From Chloroflexota bacterium (GTDB taxonomy: Bacteria; Chloroflexota; Anaerolineae; Anaerolineales; Villigracilaceae): a stretch of 42,933 nucleotides of DNA. Positions 2,600 through 25,048 of the stretch are shown one piece after another (position 1 is the stretch's first letter; each line of letters begins with the position of its first letter). The notes under the pieces were generated by a model that worked only from the letters and a program-made list of their open reading frames with translations, was not told where the DNA came from and did no database searches. The position numbers and the translations under genes were made by a program. The stretch covers positions 1 through 42,933 of the forward strand of contig JBDRTP010000313.1 in the NCBI GenBank assembly GCA_043823965.1, written 5' to 3'.

Positions 2600-3493
2600 A
2601 TGCTGGTTGCCTGGAAGTATCGGCCGCGCAACACGATCATTCAACGGCTTGACCCGCGCGCCAGGCTGATCTTCCTGGCTTGTCTGTTCGCCGCCTTTTC
2701 AATCGCCCAGATCTGGGATATCCGCCTGCTGTTGCCGCTATTCGCGCTTTCCCTCGTCCTGTACTTCCTGGCGCGCATCGAGTGGCGGGACATCAAGCGT
2801 GCATGGATTTTCATCCTGATTCTGGTCGTGTTCATCGTCGGCATCAACGCGCTCATCGCCGGGCGGGGCGGCCCGACCGCGGTGCTCCATGAACAATCGC
2901 CCGTGGTGATCTTTCAGACGCCTACGCTCGAGATCCCCGGCACGCCCTGGAGCATCACCATCACCATCACGGTGGTCAAGGCCTTTTTTGCCGTCACCCA
3001 GATGGTGCGCATGTTGACGATGGCCATCCTGGCGATTCCCATCCCATATACGATTGACCCGGCGGTTTACGGCGTCAGTTTCCGACGCATGGGCCTGCCC
3101 GATAAAGCCTCGTTTACGATGGACCTGGCTTTTCGCTTCATCCCGACCCTGGGGCGGGATTTCGCCATCACCATAGACGCCCAGCGCGCCCGCGGCTATG
3201 AAATGGAAAGCCTGAAAGGTGGCATCGTCAGCCGTTTGCGCAAACTGGCCCCATTGATCGTGCCGGTGACCATGCAGTCCATCGTGACCGGCGAGGAAGT
3301 GGTGGACGCCATGGACCTGCGCGCTTTCGGCGTGCGTCCGCGCACTTGGCTGCGGGAACTGCACTATGAACGCCGTGATTACCTCTTCATCGGTTTTGGC
3401 TTGGCGATTCTTCTAGCTTCGATTGTCCTGAAGTTGCTGGGCTACGGTCGCTTCTGGATGCCCGAGGCGCTTCTTCGCTGGGCGGGAGGGTGA
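2600..3493 (+). CDS. ecfT: ECF transporter transmembrane (T) component, EcfT/CbiQ family
   Basis: 297-aa multi-TM ORF whose start abuts the S-component stop (TAAATG). It carries an EcfT-type coupling motif region, IDAQRARGYE. Confidence 0.85.
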   Translation: MLVAWKYRPRNTIIQRLDPRARLIFLACLFAAFSIAQIWDIRLLLPLFALSLVLYFLARIEWRDIKRAWIFILILVVFIVGINALIAGRGGPTAVLHEQSPVVIFQTPTLEIPGTPWSITITITVVKAFFAVTQMVRMLTMAILAIPIPYTIDPAVYGVSFRRMGLPDKASFTMDLAFRFIPTLGRDFAITIDAQRARGYEMESLKGGIVSRLRKLAPLIVPVTMQSIVTGEEVVDAMDLRAFGVRPRTWLRELHYERRDYLFIGFGLAILLASIVLKLLGYGRFWMPEALLRWAGG

Positions 3494-3511
3494 CCAGGAT
3501 ATGTTCCCCAA

Positions 3512-3545
3512 GAGACCGTCCTGCACGCGACGGTCTCATTTGTTT
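3512..3545 (+). terminator. Intrinsic terminator after ecfT
   Basis: Stem GAGACCGTC (3512-3520) pairs with GACGGTCTC (3529-3537), followed by ATTTGTTT. Confidence 0.6.
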
Positions 3546-3609
3546 AAGCTTGGCGACTTGGCGGTAAAAATCTTGTTGACGGCTTGGGTTTGGAGGACGG
3601 GAGGCATAG

Positions 3610-5927: not shown

Positions 5928-8420
5928 ATGACAGAAGCCAAACAATTAACCCTCCCCATCACCGGCATGACCTGCGCCAACTGCGTGGCGACCATCGAGC
6001 GCAGCCTGAAAAAACTGGATGGCGTGCAGACGGCTGCCGTCAATCTCTCGTCCGAGCGCGCCACGGTGGGCTTTGACCCGTCGCTGCTCGGACTCGGCGA
6101 ACTGGTCGCGCGTGTCGAGCGCGCCGGTTACGGCGTGGCCAGCGGCGAAGCGAATTTGATCATCAAACGTCTCGCGGATGACAACGACGCCCGCCGCCTG
6201 GAAAAGTCGCTGCTCAAACTGGAAGGCGTGCTGGAAGCCTCGGTCAGCGTCGCGACCGAGCGGGCACGCGTGCGCTACATCCCCACAGTGGTGAGTCAGG
6301 CCGAGATACGGCGGATAGTTTCGGGGTCCGGTTTCGAGGCGCTGGAACTGGGCGGGGAAGCCGAGGATGCCGAGGCAAAGGCGCGTGCGGCGGAAATCCG
6401 TCAGCAGAAGCATTTACTCGTCACCGGCATTTTATTTACCGTGCCGCTTTTTTTGCTCTCGATGAGCAGGGATTTTGGGCTGCTGCCGGCCTTTTTCTAT
6501 CTGCCGGTGCAGGCGATGAGCGGTATGCGCGAGGCGCAATGGTGGTTCAACTGGCTGCTACTGGCGCTGGCGCTGCCGGTGCAGTTTTACGTCGGCTGGC
6601 AGTATTACGTCGGCGCGTATAAGGCGCTGCGCAACGGCTCGGCCAATATGGACGTGCTGATTGCGATGGGTACCTCGGCCGCGTTTTTCTATTCCCTGCC
6701 AATCACCTTTGGGTTGCTGGCGGGACACGTCTATTTCGAGACTGCCGCGGTGATTATTACGCTGATCAAGCTGGGTAAATTCCTCGAAGCGCGCGCCAAA
6801 GGGCGCACCAGCGAAGCCATCAAGAAATTGATGGCTCTGCGCGCCAAAACTGCGCGCGTGGTGCGTGACGGCGCAGAACTCGAAGTGCCGGTCGAGGATG
6901 TCAAGGTCGGCGACGTGGTGGTTGTCCGCCCGGGCGAAATAATTCCAGTGGACGGCGTGGTGGTGGACGGGCGCTCGGCGGTGGACGAATCCATGCTGAC
7001 CGGCGAATCGCTGCCAGTGGAAAAGAAACCCGGCGACCCGCTCATCGGCGCGACGCTCAACAAACTGGGTCTGCTCAAGCTCGAGGCCACCAAAGTTGGC
7101 AAAGAGACCGCCCTGGCGCAAATCGTGCGCCTGGTCGAGGAAGCGCAGGGCAGCAAAGCCCCCATCCAGAAACTGGCCGACCAGGTCTCGGCCACCTTCG
7201 TGCCGCTGGTTATTCTCATCGCGGCTCTCACGTTTGCCATCTGGTACTTCTTCGTTCCGCTGCCCGTCAATGCGGATGTCAGCCTGTTCACCCGCGCCCT
7301 GATCAACATGGTGGCCGTGCTGGTCATCGCCTGCCCGTGCGCCATGGGCCTGGCAACGCCGACCGCGGTCATGGTCGGCAGCGGCAAAGGCGCGGAGTTG
7401 GGGATTCTGTTTCGCAGCAGCGAAGCGTTGGAAAGAGCAGGCAAGGTCTCGATTGTTGTGCTGGATAAGACGGGGACGGTGACGAAGGGGCAGCCGGCGG
7501 TCACCGATATAGTGATCAGTGATCAGTATTCAGTGTTCAGTGGCACTGGTGACTGGAAACTGAACACTGAACACTTATTGCGTTTGGCCGCTTCCGTTGA
7601 AAAAGGTTCGGAACATCCCCTGGGCGAAGCCATCTGGGCCGAAGCCACGACCCGCGGCCTGCCGCTCGTCGAACCGGGCGGATTCAAGGCCGAGGCCGGG
7701 AACGGCGTCGAAGCTGAAGTAGAGGGTCACGCGGTTGTGGTGGGCAACCTGCGCATGATGGACGCCCGTCACTATCCGCTCAACGGTCTCGAAAAGGAAG
7801 TCGAACGCCTGCAATCCGAGGCCAAGACGGCCATGCTGGTGGCGGTGGACGGCGCGGTGCGCGGCGTGATTGCCGTGGCGGATACGGTCAAGGACGGCTC
7901 GAAGGAAGCCATTGACGAACTGCACCGCATGGGGCTGAAAGTCGCCATGATTACCGGCGACAATCGCAAGACCGCCGCGGCCATCGCGAAGCAAGTTGGG
8001 ATTGACATAGTTCTGGCTGAAGTATTGCCGGAAGGGAAAGCGGCGGAAGTCAAGCGTTTGCAGTCAGGCGTTGACAGGAATGTGGTTGCCATGGTTGGTG
8101 ACGGAGTGAATGACGCCCCGGCGCTGGCGCAAGCCGATGTTGGCATTGCGATTGGCACGGGAACAGATGTGGCCATGGCGGCTGCTCCGGTCACGCTCAT
8201 CAGCGGCGATTTGCGCGGCGTGGCGCGGGCGATTGCCCTCTCACGGCGCACGATGCGCACCATCAAGCAAAACCTGTTCTGGGCTTTTTTCTACAACGTG
8301 GTTTTGATACCGGCTGCGGCGATGGGATTGCTGAACCCGATGCTGGCGGCGGGTGCGATGGCGTTCAGCAGTGTGTTTGTGGTGAGTAATAGTTTGAGGT
8401 TGAGGCGAGCGAGGGTATAA
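5928..8420 (+). CDS. copA: Copper-translocating P1B-type ATPase CopA
   Basis: N-terminal HMA with GMTCANC, then a second HMA-like domain lacking CxxC. TGES, CPC, DKTGT and GDGVNDAP motifs are all present. Confidence 0.95.
7512..7574. repeat. Nine-unit heptamer array embedded in frame in copA
   Basis: GTGATCA GTGATCA GTATTCA GTGTTCA GTGGCAC TGGTGAC TGGAAAC TGAACAC TGAACAC (63 nt). The two halves are inverted relative to each other. It encodes [21 protein letters not shown] between DKTGT...VTDI and LLRLAAS. Confidence 0.9.
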
Positions 8421-8494: not shown

Positions 8495-8769
8495 AGCGGC
8501 AATACTTTTTAGAGGCTCTACCGTTTTCAATGTGATTTTGGGTATGGGCGCTCTGCCCGGAGTATAAAAAGTACGGTTTTTTGGCTTAGATACTGGGCAA
8601 TATCTTGTACTTGAAGGCTATTTAAGGTTGTCCCTGCAATGCAATCACACCAAAAACGGGAGAGCCATATTGGTGAAATTCGCGTCAATTCGATGCTGAT
8701 TTTCCGGTGTATACTTCTGTCTGGTCACAAATCTCAGTCTTCCCCTTTGAACTTCTCTCGAGGCTCGAC

Positions 8770-10473
8770 ATGTCTTTACATCTTGAATTCGAACGCTGGG
8801 AACGGGAAACGCTCAAACCCGTTCTCGATAAATTCCCCGAACGCAAGCCGAAGTTCGAGACCTCCTCGGGCATCGAACTGCCGCGCGTCGCCCTGCCTGC
8901 CGATCCCGATCTAGACTACGTCGAAAAACTCGGCTTTCCTGGCGAGTATCCGTATACGCGCGGAGTCCAGCCGACGATGTATCGTTCGCGCTTTTGGACC
9001 ATGCGTCAATACGCGGGTTTCTCCACCGCAGAAGAATCAAATAAACGTTATCGTTATTTATTGGGGCAAGGTCAAACGGGATTAAGTGTCGCGTTCGACT
9101 TGCCGACCCAGATCGGGTACGACGCGGACGATCCCATCGCGCAGGGCGAAGTGGGGAAGGTGGGCGTTTCGATTTCGTCCATTCGCGATATGGAGCAGTT
9201 GTTCGACCAGATCCCGCTCGACAAGGTTTCGACTTCGATGACCATCAACGCGCCCGCGGTTGTTTTGTTGGCGATGTACATTGCGGTGGCGAAGCGCCAG
9301 GGCGCGGACATGCGCCAACTGCGCGGCACCATCCAGAACGACATTCTCAAAGAGTACGTGGCGCGCGGCACGTATATTTTCCCGCCCGCGCCGTCCATGC
9401 GGCTGATCATCGACATCTTCCAGTTCTGCGCCGCCGAAGTGCCGTATTGGAATACGATTTCGATTTCGGGCTATCACATCCGTGAAGCAGGCTCCACCGC
9501 CGTGCAGGAAGTGGCGTTCACGCTGGCGAATGCGATCGCCTACGTGGAAGCCGCGCTGAAGGCGGGCCTCAAAGTGGACGACTTCGCGGGGCAGCTCTCG
9601 TTCTTCTTCAACGCGCATAATAATCTTCTGGAAGAGGTGGCAAAATTCCGCGCCGCGCGCCGCATGTGGGCGAAGATCATGCGCGAACGTTTCAAAGCCC
9701 AAAAGCCCGCCAGTTGGCAATTGCGTTTCCACACGCAGACCGCTGGCTCCGCGCTCACCGCGCAACAACCCGAAAACAACGTCGTGCGTGTCACTCTGCA
9801 AGCTCTGTCCGCCGTCCTCGGCGGAACTCAAAGTCTCCACACCAACAGCATGGACGAAGCCCTGTGGCTTCCCACCGAAAAGTCTGTGCGCGTCGCGCTC
9901 CGCACGCAACAGATCATCGCCTACGAGTCGGGTGTCGCCGATTCGATTGACCCGCTGGCGGGTTCGTATCTCATCGAACATCTCACCGACGAGATCGAAA
10001 AAGGCGCCCTCGACTACATCGCCAAAATTGACGAGATGGGCGGCGCGTTGCAGTCCATCGAGCGCGGCTACATGCAGAACGAAATCCAAAACGCCGCCTA
10101 CGCCGCGCAACAGGCGATCGAAAAGAAAGAGCAGATCGTGGTGGGCGTCAATCAATTCCAGGTGAAGGAAGAAATGACGCTCGAACGCCTGAGCGTTGAC
10201 CCTGCCATCGAAGCAGCGCAAAAGGCGAAGCTGAAGGCGTTGCGAGAGAATAGAGATCAGAGAGTAGTCAATCAGTTGCTCGATCAACTGTCGCACGCCG
10301 CACGTGGCACGCTTGCCCTGAACCGCCGCGCTGCCGAAGGTGCCGAAGCGGCAGCCGAAGGGCATAATCTCATGCCCTTGTTCATCGAGTGCGTGGAGAA
10401 CGACATCACGCTCGGAGAGATTTGCAATACGCTCCGCGGCGTGTGGGGCGAGTACGTGGCGGAGGGGTTTTGA
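8770..10473 (+). CDS. Methylmalonyl-CoA mutase family, large catalytic subunit (split type, no B12-binding domain)
   Basis: Typical MCM TIM-barrel motifs: [58 protein letters not shown] chose the ATG at 8770 ([10 protein letters not shown]); the track start at 8707 adds an unlikely leader. Confidence 0.9.
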
Positions 10474-10479
10474 ATCACA

Positions 10480-10487
10480 GGTATAAT
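10480..10487 (+). promoter_or_regulatory. Candidate -10 box (GGTATAAT) of the inserted TA cassette
   Basis: Lies 7 nt after the mutase stop. GGAGG at 10495-10499 and ATG at 10505 follow. Confidence 0.5.
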
Positions 10488-10504
10488 CGAATTTGGAGGC
10501 TATC

Positions 10505-10762
10505 ATGAAAATCTCCGAATCCCTTGAATCTGCTCGTTACATGGTTGACCCGAAAGGCAATCGAACCAATGTAGTGATTCCGTTTGAAACCTGGCAAAAA
10601 TTACTCGAAGCCTGGGAGCGGTTGATCGAACGGCTCGAAGACCAGGAAGACCGCGCCATTTTACAGGAATGGCTGGCGCGCCGCGCTTCAGGCGAGAAGG
10701 ATACCGTCACATTGGTGGAACTCGAAAAAGAGTTGGTCGCCGATGGGTTCTTACCGGGTTGA
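10505..10762 (+). CDS. Putative antitoxin of a ParE/RelE-type TA pair
   Basis: 85-aa acidic protein that overlaps the downstream toxin gene by 20 nt. Start chosen after the GGAGG. Confidence 0.6.
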   Translation: MKISESLESARYMVDPKGNRTNVVIPFETWQKLLEAWERLIERLEDQEDRAILQEWLARRASGEKDTVTLVELEKELVADGFLPG

Positions 10763-11057
10763 AATCACGAATGCAGCGCGGCGGGAAATCCGCAATTTGC
10801 CTGGACACATGCGCCAGTTGATCTTTCGCGAAATCCAGGCATTGGAAAAAGAAGCGCGCCCATATTCCAGCAAGGGAATGAAATCCACAAAGAATTTCAA
10901 GATCTCAAAAGACGTGGAGTTGCGCCGTATTCGCATGGACCGCTGGCGGGTGGTGTATGTGATCGAGCAAGAACTTTCGCTGGTCACTGTGCTGGCAATT
11001 CGTAAGCGCCCGCCGTACCAGTACGAAGATTTGGAAGACCTGCTCAAAGAAGTGTAG
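10743..11057 (+). CDS. RelE/ParE-family toxin
   Basis: 104 aa with YRVEITNAARREIRNLP...RRIRMDRWRVVYVIE...VTVLAIRKRP, the typical ParE/RelE fold signature. Confidence 0.8.
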   Translation: MGSYRVEITNAARREIRNLPGHMRQLIFREIQALEKEARPYSSKGMKSTKNFKISKDVELRRIRMDRWRVVYVIEQELSLVTVLAIRKRPPYQYEDLEDLLKEV

Positions 11058-11174
11058 GAAGGGTAGAATCTCATGCCCCTCTTCATCAAATGCGTCGAAA
11101 ACGACATTACGCTCGGCGAGATTTGCAACACGCTCCGCGGCGTGTGGGGCGAGTATGTGGCGCAGGGGTTTTAG
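11058..11174 (+). pseudogene. Orphan duplicate of the mutase gene 3' end
   Basis: 11058-11174 aligns with 10358-10473 at roughly 88% identity by my manual count. It would encode [35 protein letters not shown], against ...IECVEN...VAEGF* in the intact gene. Confidence 0.85.
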
Positions 11175-11219: not shown

Positions 11220-11798
11220 TTATTGCATGATCGCATCCATACTAGGCTGGGTCAACTGACGGAACATATCATTGATCCGCTCAGCGGGATACGGCATGTC
11301 GTGATCGAGCCACCATGTCAACAAGGCTATAAACGTACTGACGATGTAAAGCGTCATGATTTCCGGCGGTATTTGTTCTTTCTTCTTACTGGGAAATTGC
11401 GGCTTTAAATGTTCGTAAATAAGAGTTGTAAGATATTTCTGAATGTGCGAAAGCATCGCATGACCGCCCTTTTCCCCAACCAGGGCCTTGTAGACGCGCT
11501 GATACTCCTGTGCGTGTTGGAACATGATCAGGCTTAGCGCCCAGGGATTTTCCGCAGCGGGGGACTGCCCAAGCAAGTGCTGTTCAAACTGCGCCCGCAT
11601 GCTCTCGAACCCGCCCAGAAATAAATCCTCCTTATCCTGAAAATGCGCGTAGAACGTTGATCGCCCTACGTTGGCGCGGTCAATTACATCCTGCACGGTC
11701 ACGGCTTCAAATCCCTTTTCTAAAATTAATTCTATAAGTGCATCCTGCAAAAGCTGACGTGTACGCTGAATGCGGCGGTCTAAAACCTTTTTGTTCAT
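11220..11798 (-). CDS. TetR/AcrR-family transcriptional regulator
   Basis: HTH region RTRQLLQDALIELILEKGFEAVTVQDVIDRANVGRSTFYAHF. Start at 11798 (MNKK), preceded by AGGAGA; the longer track ORF is not needed. Confidence 0.85.
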   Translation of the reverse strand: MNKKVLDRRIQRTRQLLQDALIELILEKGFEAVTVQDVIDRANVGRSTFYAHFQDKEDLFLGGFESMRAQFEQHLLGQSPAAENPWALSLIMFQHAQEYQRVYKALVGEKGGHAMLSHIQKYLTTLIYEHLKPQFPSKKKEQIPPEIMTLYIVSTFIALLTWWLDHDMPYPAERINDMFRQLTQPSMDAIMQ

Positions 11799-15916: not shown

Positions 15917-16297
15917 ATGCCAGCGAAACGATCCAATCCCAACACTATGCGCCAAGCGGTGAAGCTGCGAAAAGTCCCTACACCTGCTGAGAAAAAACTG
16001 TGGTCATATTTACGCGGGGAAAAATTGAACGGGGTGAGTTTTAGACGTCAACACGCCATTGGGAATTTCATCCCTGATTTTGTCTCAATCAAGAGGAAAT
16101 TAATCATTGAACTTGACGGCAGCCAGCATTTGGAGCAAGCTGAATATGATGTTGAGCGAACCAAGTATTTTGAGTCACAGGGGTATAAGGTGATTCGCTT
16201 TTGGAATAATCAGGTGATGAACGATATTAACAGGGTCATTCGAGTTATCGAGTTTGCGTTGAATGATGAGCAAGCGCGATATGAAAATTTAGGTTGA
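15917..16297 (+). CDS. DUF559 endonuclease-domain protein (Vsr-like fold)
   Basis: PTPAEKKLWSYLRGEKLNGVSFRRQHAIGNFIPDFV...IIELDGSQH...KVIRFWNNQV is the DUF559 signature. Confidence 0.85.
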   Translation: MPAKRSNPNTMRQAVKLRKVPTPAEKKLWSYLRGEKLNGVSFRRQHAIGNFIPDFVSIKRKLIIELDGSQHLEQAEYDVERTKYFESQGYKVIRFWNNQVMNDINRVIRVIEFALNDEQARYENLG

Positions 16298-20288: not shown

Positions 20289-20540
20289 ATGGTCACAAGA
20301 CATATTTCAATTGAGATTCCCGAATCCATTTTGCTCGCCGAAAAGACGGATGAAGTTGCTTTTGCTCGCGAGTTGCGCGTCCTTGCGGCGGTGAAACTGT
20401 ACGAGATGGGACGGTTGTCATCAGGCCGCGCCGCTGAACTGGCGGGTATGCCGCGCGTGGAGTTCCTTGTCAATTTGGGGCGATACAAAGTCTTTCCACT
20501 TCAAGCCGAATTAAACGATCTGGAAAGCCATGCCGCCTGA
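20289..20540 (+). CDS. UPF0175-family antitoxin-like protein
   Basis: LRVLAAVKLYEMGRLSSGRAAELAGMPRVEFLVNLGRY is the UPF0175 signature. Confidence 0.75.
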   Translation: MVTRHISIEIPESILLAEKTDEVAFARELRVLAAVKLYEMGRLSSGRAAELAGMPRVEFLVNLGRYKVFPLQAELNDLESHAA

Positions 20541-21021
20541 AGCCATCAGCAACACATCGCCATTGTTGTATCTTTATCGTATTGACGGACTCAATTGGCT
20601 TTCGAAACTGTTTGATTCCATTTGGGTTCCACAAGCCGTTGCAGATGAATTCAAAGAGGGGCGGCGCAGAGGCTATGATGTACCTGACCTTGCCAAATAC
20701 AACTGGTTGAAAATCGTTAATCCCAAAGCGATGCCGTCCGAATGGCTGGCTCTCGATTTGGGCGCGGGAGAACTGTCCGCGATGGCGCTTGCATTGGAAA
20801 ATCTCACTCGAATTATCTTGCTCGATGATTTGCTGGCGCGTCGTACTGCACAGGCGGCAGGTCTCACGGTTTGGGGAACGTTGAGGCTTTTGCTTGAAGC
20901 CAAATCGAACGGCCTGATCGATTCTGTCGGGATGTATATCAATCGTTTGAGTGAATCGGGTATGTGGATTTCAGACGAAGTCCGTCAACGGATTTTAGTG
21001 TTGGCAGGTGAACAACCATGA
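20530..21021 (+). CDS. DUF3368 (PIN-like) protein, putative toxin
   Basis: ISNTSPLLYLYRIDGLNWLSKLF...VPQAV..E matches the DUF3368 N-terminus. It overlaps the UPF0175 gene by 11 nt. Confidence 0.75.
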   Translation: MPPEAISNTSPLLYLYRIDGLNWLSKLFDSIWVPQAVADEFKEGRRRGYDVPDLAKYNWLKIVNPKAMPSEWLALDLGAGELSAMALALENLTRIILLDDLLARRTAQAAGLTVWGTLRLLLEAKSNGLIDSVGMYINRLSESGMWISDEVRQRILVLAGEQP

Positions 21022-24041: not shown

Positions 24042-24929
24042 CTACCATAACTGCCGCAATTTCATATTGATCTCGCGCCATTGGATCTTCGAGACGCCCA
24101 GTTTCTGGCGGATTTTCTCCGGCGCGACTGTGTTCAGGTAATCCAGCAGGGCGCTCGTCCAGCGGCACATGTCGAATGAAAGATGTTTGCTCAATCCGGC
24201 CTCATTGCCGATATCTTCCAGCAAATACTCCAGCCGCCGCGGCGACCAGGGGAAGAGTTGATCCACGGGGTTGTACTGGGAGAGATACTCCTCGTAAGCC
24301 GGGATCCAATCATCGGGCAGGCTGATCTTGCGTTCTTTATAGCGGTTGGCTGGACTGGCATAACGGATGAAGACGAGCGCGCCGCCGGTGGTCTGCGACA
24401 GGTCTATGTGATTCAGGTGGATGCCCAGACATTCAGATTTTTTGATTCCAGTGGCAAGCAACAGGGCTACTAGTGCGTATGGCCGGGCATCCGGCTTTGG
24501 CTTGCGGCGGTGACGGTCGGCGGCCAGCATCACCGCCTCGACTTCGGTCTCGGTCAGCACTATGGGCAGGGGGCTGATCACCGAGCGTTGGACGACCTTC
24601 TCAGCCGGGTCCACCAGGAGGGCGCCGCCCTTTTGCAGCCAGCGAAAGAAGGATTTTAGAGAGGTGATGCGCCGCGAGAGGGTCTTGGGACTGCAAGGTA
24701 CGCCGCGCTCCTTTTCCATCCAGGCCAGGAAGCTGTTCAAGTCATTGGTGGTGATTGCGCCCAGTGTCCGGTCGGGAGGTAGAAAATTCGTCAGTAAACG
24801 TACATCGGAAAGAAAGGCTTTGACAGTGTTGGGGGAACGTCCCTGGTCGTTCAGGTAGATCGTCCATGCGTTGATGGCCGGGATGAGGGTTGTCTGGGCG
24901 TTGATATGGGCGATGTCGGAGTCGGTCAT
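24042..24929 (-). CDS. Tyrosine-recombinase (XerC/D-like) homolog with a degenerate active site
   Basis: SAM-like N-domain (SPNTVKAFLSDVRLL, RRITSLKSFFRWL) and a C-domain alignable to XerD. Start at 24929, preceded by AAGGAGG. The catalytic positions read K (ATGIKKSE), K, D..R (FDMCRW), V (LGVS) and N in place of Tyr. Confidence 0.7.
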   Translation of the reverse strand: MTDSDIAHINAQTTLIPAINAWTIYLNDQGRSPNTVKAFLSDVRLLTNFLPPDRTLGAITTNDLNSFLAWMEKERGVPCSPKTLSRRITSLKSFFRWLQKGGALLVDPAEKVVQRSVISPLPIVLTETEVEAVMLAADRHRRKPKPDARPYALVALLLATGIKKSECLGIHLNHIDLSQTTGGALVFIRYASPANRYKERKISLPDDWIPAYEEYLSQYNPVDQLFPWSPRRLEYLLEDIGNEAGLSKHLSFDMCRWTSALLDYLNTVAPEKIRQKLGVSKIQWREINMKLRQLW

Positions 24930-25048
24930 GCGGACCTCCTTTTTGGAAGCGCCGTGTGATAAGTGTCGCATGTCATCTGGCGCGTTGCGTGTATCTTACT
25001 GCGTATAGTTTAGCGCAAAAGGAGGGGAATGTCAACTGAGGGGAAAGA

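Follow-up and report, generated by a model that had tools for sequence, protein, structure and literature searches.

A toxin–antitoxin cassette between two diverged copies of a mutase gene end in an Anaerolineales genome

How does a toxin–antitoxin (TA) cassette come to lie immediately behind the stop codon of a metabolic gene, with this conserved gene left intact and a second, diverged version of its end on the far side? The question is raised by contig JBDRTP010000313.1 of a Chloroflexota bacterium (Villigracilaceae, Anaerolineales; assembly GCA_043823965.1), of which we analysed positions 1 to 42,933 of the forward strand; this whole stretch of 42,933 nucleotides (nt) is referred to below as the window. 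In it, a methylmalonyl-CoA mutase gene is followed by a TA cassette and by a further copy of the mutase 3' end. In the locus and its relatives one signature returns: a TA cassette that runs from promoter to stop begins exactly behind the stop codon of a conserved gene and is followed by a homeologous version of the gene end. The recurrence of this signature gives a testable clue to how cassettes may move without a recombinase of their own.

Anatomy of the locus and divergence of the two gene ends

The target gene encodes a protein of the methylmalonyl-CoA mutase N-terminal-domain type (8770-10473, + strand; 567 amino acids according to other gene callings, 588 if the reading frame is counted from the GTG at 8707). 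It matches Pfam PF01642 (MM_CoA_mutase; E 5e-225) and NCBIfam TIGR00641 (790 bits), and its 35 C-terminal residues are near-invariant across 120 listed homologues. Copy A (10357-10473, +) is the functional last 115 nt of this gene with the stop codon TGA at 10471-10473; copy B (11058-11174, +) is a non-functional mutase 3' end with its own stop codon, TAG, at 11172-11174. Positions 10357-10471 form a direct repeat with 11058-11172, ungapped over 115 nt and identical at 102 of 115 positions (88.7-89%; blastn E about 1e-39), with a start-to-start spacing of 701. The first base past the toxin stop opens copy B (TAG at 11055-11057, then GAAGGG at 11058-11063), and the homology runs out at the stop codons of both copies. 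A first-pass annotation, made from the letters of this DNA alone, had already noticed that the mutase end recurs after the toxin stop: its coordinates lie within 1-3 nt of ours, and its count of 13 mismatches is correct.

The layout of copy A, TA pair and copy B is identical in five further contigs from three sources (ENA, NCBI (GCA_018898045.1) and Logan assemblies) and is therefore not an assembly artefact; the arrangement of direct repeat and insert is real and non-random. The names of homologues point to the Anaerolineales (Chloroflexota) as the source. Copy B does not belong to any real gene downstream: the CAT (His) codon of copy A corresponds to an in-frame TAG (11064-11066), a Pfam search with copy B gave no match, and the next gene on its 3' side is a convergent native neighbour, a TetR-family regulator (11220-11798, - strand; PF00440, PF14278). 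A reading frame of 33 amino acids inside copy B (11073-11174) is called in other assemblies.

The cassette itself occupies 10474-11057 on the + strand (584 bp). Its blastn homology to L086, which has the mutase context, and to L088 and L135, where it stands upstream of an asnS-type gene, spans exactly these bounds. As read from the sequence, a perfect TATAAT (10482-10487, +) and a GGAGG (10495-10499, +) precede the antitoxin ATG at 10505, and both motifs are kept in the cassette copies of all contexts. The antitoxin is RelB-like (10505-10762, +; 85 amino acids; PF18506 with 27.3 bits at a cut-off of 27), with further weak matches to DUF6290 and to a RelB-like NCBIfam family. The toxin belongs to the ParE/RelE superfamily (10743-11057, +; 104 amino acids; PF05016 with 25.4 bits at a cut-off of 23), overlaps the antitoxin gene by 20 nt and retains an intact native C-terminus, LLKEV. 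We found 70 toxin homologues that align with a conserved end, many of them named RelE/StbE by JGI; homologues 64-89% identical are common in Anaerolineales metagenomes. With the antitoxin first, overlapping genes and family matches for both proteins, the pair has the gene features of a predicted type II module, whose toxin may act on mRNA, like RelE, or on gyrase, like ParE. No recombinase was found in or beside the insert, which is a discrete unit holding the TA genes alone, as the first-pass annotation had held. Its description of the 584 bp as promoter, antitoxin and toxin stands for the size and the TA pair; for the promoter it is reduced to the TATAAT and GGAGG motifs, since neither a complete sigma-70 promoter nor a terminator was called in the stretch from the mutase to the TA genes.

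The two gene ends differ in the manner of coding sequences. Over the 35 conserved codons, copies A and B show 11 differences, distributed 3/0/8 over the three codon positions and resolved into 8 synonymous and 3 non-synonymous steps; only two amino acids change, E to K and E to Q, as had been counted by hand. Duplication in place followed by drift of copy B predicts a pairwise dN/dS of at least 0.5, against which we tested the pairs. The formal dN/dS of the two copies in the window is 0.08, that of the A/B pair in L173 is 0.10, and pairs flanking cassettes at ruvB and at a CrtC-like gene give 0.07-0.13; the value pooled over the pairs is about 0.10. Given these values, in-situ duplication with a neutrally drifting copy B fits poorly (P=0.013 for the window alone, P=2e-8 for six analogous pairs pooled). 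Even copies B compared with each other, window against L173, have a dN/dS of 0.11 (P=6e-4 against neutrality). The substitution of E by Q, which yields the variant VAQGF, occurs naturally among the 120 mutase homologues, while the K in FIKC of copy B is absent from them. These results support the earlier proposal that both copies evolved as coding sequence, a signature that both bear.

Several features of the surroundings may be noted here. The mutase of the window has an unusual low-complexity insertion of 14 residues (10300-10372), just ahead of the conserved tail. This insertion is itself internally repetitive (GCTGCCGAAGGT / GCAGCCGAAGGG), and the GAAGGG that forms the left edge of the A/B repeat falls within it. 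At this edge, copy A contains a perfect 8-bp hairpin stem (AAGGGCAT...ATGCCCTT) that is broken in copy B. One contig with the same TetR and ABC genes, L167 (Logan SRR26275510), stops inside copy B at the equivalent of window position about 11145, and its end overlaps another contig by about 29 nt, a branch in the assembly graph that may stem from a co-occurring variant, for instance an empty site, or from a k-mer break alone. Further TA-like genes lie elsewhere: a DUF3368 (PIN-like) protein at 20530-21021 (+) of the window is probably the toxin of a second TA module, and L173 has a UPF0175 and DUF3368 pair (6023-6315) 2.7 kb downstream of its mutase-TA unit.

Recurrence, arrays and exchanged alleles

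We fetched 160 loci with toxin homologues, 138 of which were testable for flanking repeats, and used 341 shifted mock positions as a control. Tight flanking repeats were present at 13 of the 138 homologous TA loci and at 4 of the 341 mock positions (odds ratio 8.8, P=5e-5). The targets are the mutase (window, L006, L086, L091/L093 and L173/L174; repeat of 115 nt, 89% identical in the window), ruvB (L062/L159/L160, L150 and L157; 87-104 nt, 79-87%), a CrtC/AttH-like gene (L156; 86 nt, 90%) and a convergent WD40-like gene (L068; 113 nt, 95%). Every target-gene repeat stops 0-3 nt past the stop codon of its target, and in seven loci with flanking repeats no tRNA gene serves as target. At about 20 loci with the architecture each insert consists of the TA pair only, with no integrase-bearing version of the element among them; at the mutase end, no integrase-bearing element lies within 3-4 kb in L006, L086, L091, L168-L174 or L181. 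The same TA pair beside mutase 3' ends was encountered in L006, L086, L091/L093, L173/L174 and L181. An apparent clustering of the copies B in the ruvB clade was set aside, the distances being star-like and uninformative.

Cassettes also accumulate at one gene end. Locus L006 (1125-4480; GTDB MAG MFD04944.bin.1.53) is an array at the mutase 3' end in which cassettes stand apart with gene-end copies (fragments F1 to F3) between or behind them. Behind the real mutase end come the truncated start of an antitoxin-like gene, a transposase of the IS66 family (1341-2996) and the remnant of a PIN toxin (3325-3588); then follow fragment F1, a RelE-type TA pair whose toxin is frameshifted, fragment F2 with an intact peptide, a remnant resembling the left end of a cassette (AATCAGAGACGTAA) and a partial fragment F3. 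Its first cassette, interrupted by IS66, is of the PIN type and its second of the RelE type. L086 probably holds an array as well, its fragment in the A position being cut off from any mutase gene by an insertion sequence (IS); L086 and L181 are related rearranged forms. Mutase-end fragments moreover carry in-frame insertion variants of 6 nt (WGDAQRVAEGF) and 21 nt (PAPVLWV), common to several genomes (L006:3687-3728, L006:4435-4476, L093:370-420, L181:2695-2740; L086:1860-1880, L173:3400-3420). Some genomes have them on the upstream side of the cassette and others on the downstream side, and neither is present in any functional mutase among the 120 listed homologues. Copy B is truncated, frameshifted or bears insertions in L086, L091/L093 and L173.

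The three cassette-free mutase lineages examined (L168, L169/L170 and L171/L172), with 84-86% nt identity over the body of the gene, possess one gene end apiece, which finishes in TAG; the duplication is thus not found there without the TA pair. Over 105 nt, copy A lies nearer to these relatives, with 12-14 differences against 17-19 for copy B. The first-pass annotation had supposed that an incoming end displaced the resident one, a direction that this comparison does not establish: copies A and B are each other's closest sequences in it, so a nearest-neighbour test cannot tell which copy is the resident, and both share derived states (AATCTC, CTCCGCGGC) relative to the outgroups.

A cassette-bearing relative is more telling. 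In the closest one, L173, the mutase is 86.6% and the cassette 87.7% identical to those of the window. Its downstream copy opens with GAATGGGAG (the 'EGE' class, as in every other copy B), whereas its own gene has GGCACGTGG; since that gene is without the former sequence, the left edge of copy B arrived in L173 with the cassette. Over sites 19-105 (87 nt), copy A of the window and copy B of L173 differ at 4 positions, and all other A/B combinations at 9-10: the allele types occupy opposite upstream and downstream positions in the two genomes. At the 3' tip, cassette-linked functional ends finish in TGA followed by ATCAC, while free ends and the copies B of the window and L173 finish in TAG; the tip of copy A, GGAGGGGTTTTGA followed by ATCAC, is common to the cassette-linked copies in L086, L091 and L173. 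Read from these alignments, the patterns would fit recombination at variable points within the repeat, often near the 3' tip, and a single fixed core would fit less well. A fixed crossover of the kind used by site-specific integrative elements, as the first-pass annotation had envisaged, is accordingly not indicated, the allele types having swapped positions and no integrase-bearing version having turned up at the loci surveyed.

Two candidate markers did not hold. The longest identical block of 26 nt (ACGCTCCGCGGCGTG...), put forward earlier as a crossover core, is common to all four copies of the window and L173, and because this reflects clade-level conservation it is not a crossover scar. 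The state GTC at site 30, shared by the copies B of the window, L086 and L093, was dropped as a marker of a B lineage, the functional copy A of L173 having the same state.

Within the Anaerolineales, at least five genomic contexts contain the cassette, bounded each time in the same way: besides the mutase and asnS-type genes, close copies adjoin coaX, lie near GroEL and occur elsewhere. In the asnS-context copies the cassette is immediately preceded by GGAGG(C/T)GTTT, which corresponds to the final 10 nt of the mutase (9 of 10 matching at a fixed position); retaining this remnant of the mutase tip, they thus descend from a mutase-context copy. A remnant of the left edge of copy B after the toxin was not significant in L179, L088 and L135.

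Some neighbouring observations belong to these loci. In the asnS context, the sequence after the toxin stop, AAGGAGGAAATCATGCCCCCCATCATCCGCGTCGAA (the asnS start; L090:1402-1440, L089:1147-1185), resembles the start of copy B (window 11058-11099), with a local score of 16 where 5000 random windows gave at most 14; the likeness could be chance or a homeologous site used in a move of the cassette. Directly 3' of the mutase, the cassette-free relatives have a STAND NTPase (L168:5138-7763), a DUF559 (Vsr-like) protein (L169:5739-6185) and an AAA_15/AAA_21 ATPase (L171:5738-7660): this position is a variable hotspot, with unrelated and often defence-like genes and without conserved synteny. A DUF559 gene is also present in the window (15917-16297).

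Other repeat arrangements were met among the TA homologues. In L031 (187-2055, an Anaerolineaceae contig), a RelB/RelE-type and a PIN-type cassette are set apart by three copies of a non-coding repeat of ~104-112 nt that folds as a long imperfect hairpin; this looks like an integron-style (attC-like) cassette array, with a mechanism other than gene-end repeats. In the cyanobacterial loci L012 (2910-4536) and L107 (318-2846), TA homologues are bracketed by direct repeats of 209-419 nt (91-92%) that include a DUF4278 gene; the upstream repeat lies about 0.6-1.3 kb before the antitoxin, with other sequence between it and the TA pair. L133 (2032-3525) and L134 (2032-4107) have several repeat copies of ~300 nt (73-91%) on both sides of a TA homologue, like a tandem array.

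How the cassette may move

The account that we favour, as possible but still short of probable, is that of a minimal mobile cassette which has no recombinase of its own, travels with the ~115-nt mutase end as portable homology and recombines there. The cassette-borne copy of the last ~115 nt would act as an att-like arm; a gene end can serve as portable homology because it is almost invariant across the mutase family. We infer a circular molecule of gene end and TA pair that would undergo a Campbell-type single crossover, or an equivalent repair event, with the resident gene end. The insertion would then land exactly after the stop codon, keep the gene intact and leave a dead second end behind the toxin. 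The engine would most likely be host homologous recombination (RecA), and both this enzyme and any current activity are inferred.

Recombination between the direct repeats could in turn reverse the insertion or swap sequence between the copies, a variable crossover point leading to exchange between the functional and the dead end. Such exchange would periodically expose both copies to purifying selection, which would explain why their divergence is of the synonymous kind. Repeated accretion of cassettes would give arrays, and addiction to the TA pair would counter-select loss by repeat-repeat recombination. The expected junction of an empty site is the mutase body and one hybrid gene end, then AGGAAACAATAGATATAG; that of a circle is ...GAAGTGTAG, a gene-end copy, then ATCACAGGTATAAT. 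A broader statement, that type II TA cassettes are autonomous, recombinase-free 'gene-end hitchhikers', seems to us doubtful: they would carry the 3' end of a highly conserved housekeeping gene as attachment site, integrate, excise and accrete at this gene by host homologous recombination in any related genome, and keep the carried copy translatable by its periodically becoming the real end of the host gene. If so, the movement of chromosomal TA modules would have a general explanation.

A number of points weigh against the favoured account. Identity of 89% over 115 nt makes a poor substrate for RecA, and the account does not explain how a gene end was first duplicated at each target. In the asnS, coaX and other contexts no flanking repeats above the level of shuffles surround the cassette; gene-end homology is therefore not its sole way of moving. 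A look-up with the TetR protein returned only occupied sites and one contig ending in copy B, uninformative because it probably marks a break of the k-mer graph; no excision product, same-species empty site or circle junction was observed in it. The swap of alleles depends on few informative sites, about 10. As mutase and cassette have diverged alike between the window and L173, the distribution could be largely vertical, reflecting an old insertion with intragenomic exchange. Finally, a Xer-like tyrosine recombinase lies 13 kb from the cassette and could act in trans.

This last point leads to a first alternative, which we consider rather unlikely: the unit would be a cis-mobilizable element (CIME)-like remnant of a site-specific integrative element with the mutase 3' end as its target. 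Bracketed by attL and attR, it would owe its movement or accretion to a recombinase of the tyrosine or serine type that is encoded elsewhere and acts in trans, much as e14 or phage 21 at icd bring a replacement gene end. As in e14/icd-icdC (PMC13626634), the repeats do correspond to the 3' end of the target and reach no further than its stop codon, and the same-site tandem arrays (L006, and presumably L086) resemble CIME accretion (PMC5704250). The left boundary of the downstream copy is constant in all mutase-context lineages, and the post-toxin junction of the asnS context resembles that edge as a secondary att site might, its score of 16 exceeding the random maximum. However, at least four unrelated target genes would demand four recombinase specificities, and none of the about 20 loci with the architecture has an integrase-bearing version; the opposite allele positions in the window and L173 speak against one fixed crossover, and the sequence of copy B to the left of any putative core is gene-homologous too. 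The recombinase in question (24042-24971, - strand; 309 amino acids, Phage_int_SAM_1 and Phage_integrase), sole among the scanned reading frames of the window, stands next to tilS rather than next to the cassette. Its best NCBIfam matches, XerD, XerA and XerC, reach 82-91 bits where the cut-offs are 220-335, and the integron-integrase model gives 25 bits against a cut-off of 265.

An old, now immobile insertion with long target duplication, which would have arisen once in an ancestor and been passed on vertically, is in our judgement unlikely; here occasional gene conversion or allelic replacement, through homologous recombination with functional alleles rather than through cassette mobility, would have kept copy B coding-like. 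It shares with the cases of Furuta et al. 2010 (PMC2853133) a lone addiction module between long direct repeats with no mobility genes, and it would suit the derived states common to copies A and B of the window, the decay of copy B in L086 and L091/L093, and the fact that from the window to L173 the mutase and the cassette have diverged to a similar extent. Its repeats should nonetheless be near-identical, and those observed are 79-95% identical and differ in a strongly synonymous manner even between copies B of different genomes. The left edge of copy B in L173 is of another mutase class than the host gene, close cassette copies stand in at least five unrelated contexts with the mutase tip remnant kept, and the L006 array combines unlike cassettes, PIN-type and RelE-type. 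Nor would random staggered duplication be expected to place the repeat boundary exactly on the stop codon at four different targets. A last, very improbable reading is that copy B is kept for its product, a peptide of 33 residues (11073-11174, MPLFIKCVEN...VAQGF) that would imitate the C-terminal tail of the mutase and act as a third functional component of the operon. Its ATG follows a Shine-Dalgarno-like motif (GAAGGG/AAGGGG) in the window and in L006, gene callers predict the small frame in several assemblies, and dN/dS between copies B is low; but copy B is broken or carries insertions in L086, L091/L093 and L173, the ruvB-type and other copies B have no start in common, and the peptide has no family match.

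Comparison with known systems

If a carried gene end does allow integration independent of a recombinase, TA mobility would be linked to the 'long target duplication' of restriction-modification (RM) systems, the clustering of TA modules beside conserved genes would be explained, and chimeric housekeeping-gene ends would be predicted as a by-product. A recent review describes the movement and integration of TA systems as unelucidated, and in the literature that we searched, with incomplete coverage, we found no report of long target duplication, or of gene ends in duplicate, around TA modules.

The closest precedent in layout is a prophage. In the work of Hill et al. from 1989, the e14/icd ends are said to differ mostly by synonymous changes, and excision to recombine both ends. 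In E. coli, e14 or phage 21 in icd gives the order icd, prophage, icdC, with the gene intact and a C-terminal fragment pseudogene at the far end (PMC13626634). Our locus is alike in that its repeats are the 3' end of a conserved metabolic gene, which remains intact, and in the displaced C-terminal fragment beyond the insert. It differs from e14, an element of about 15 kb with its own integrase and excisionase and a short fixed core, by its 584 bp, its lack of a recombinase and its signs of variable exchange. CIMEs, and tandem accretion such as that of ICESt1/ICESt3 at the fda 3' end (PMC5704250; PMC6323972), offer a second parallel: att-like repeats of a gene 3' end, no integration or transfer genes, and cassettes arrayed in tandem at one site. 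By origin, CIMEs are decayed integrative and conjugative or integrative and mobilizable elements, and they need the cognate integrase of a related element; here no parent element or integrase was found at the loci surveyed, and the architecture occurs at several unrelated genes, always with a TA pair only.

Chromosomal-integron TA cassettes are similar in running from promoter to stop, in size and in forming arrays split by ~100-nt repeats. In contrast to them, the repeats at the mutase and at ruvB consist of coding gene ends and show no attC-like fold, and no integron integrase was found in the window. As single-stranded DNA, copy A folds into three small hairpins (z -3.2), copy B gives a z of about 0 and a ruvB copy one of about 0 to +1, and an attC-like fold was rejected.

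'Insertion with long target duplication' is described for RM systems, reportedly by Nobusato et al. in 2000, and by Furuta, Abe and Kobayashi in 2010. There, an addiction-type gene pair lies between long (30-400 bp), variable direct repeats of the target, some of which overlap a gene 3' end, and the hypothesis of a life cycle by way of these repeats has been put forward (PMC2853133; PMC3874152). The locus described here shares with these cases the presence of addiction genes alone between direct repeats longer than 30 bp, and the absence of mobility genes. Most RM repeats have 93-100% identity, both between themselves and with the empty site, unlike the present ones, which are 79-95% identical, diverge in coding fashion and end at stop codons; the cargo, too, is here a TA module. 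Altogether, the topology is known from e14/icd, CIMEs and RM long target duplication: it is the TA cargo, together with homeologous repeats bounded by a stop codon, that sets this arrangement apart.

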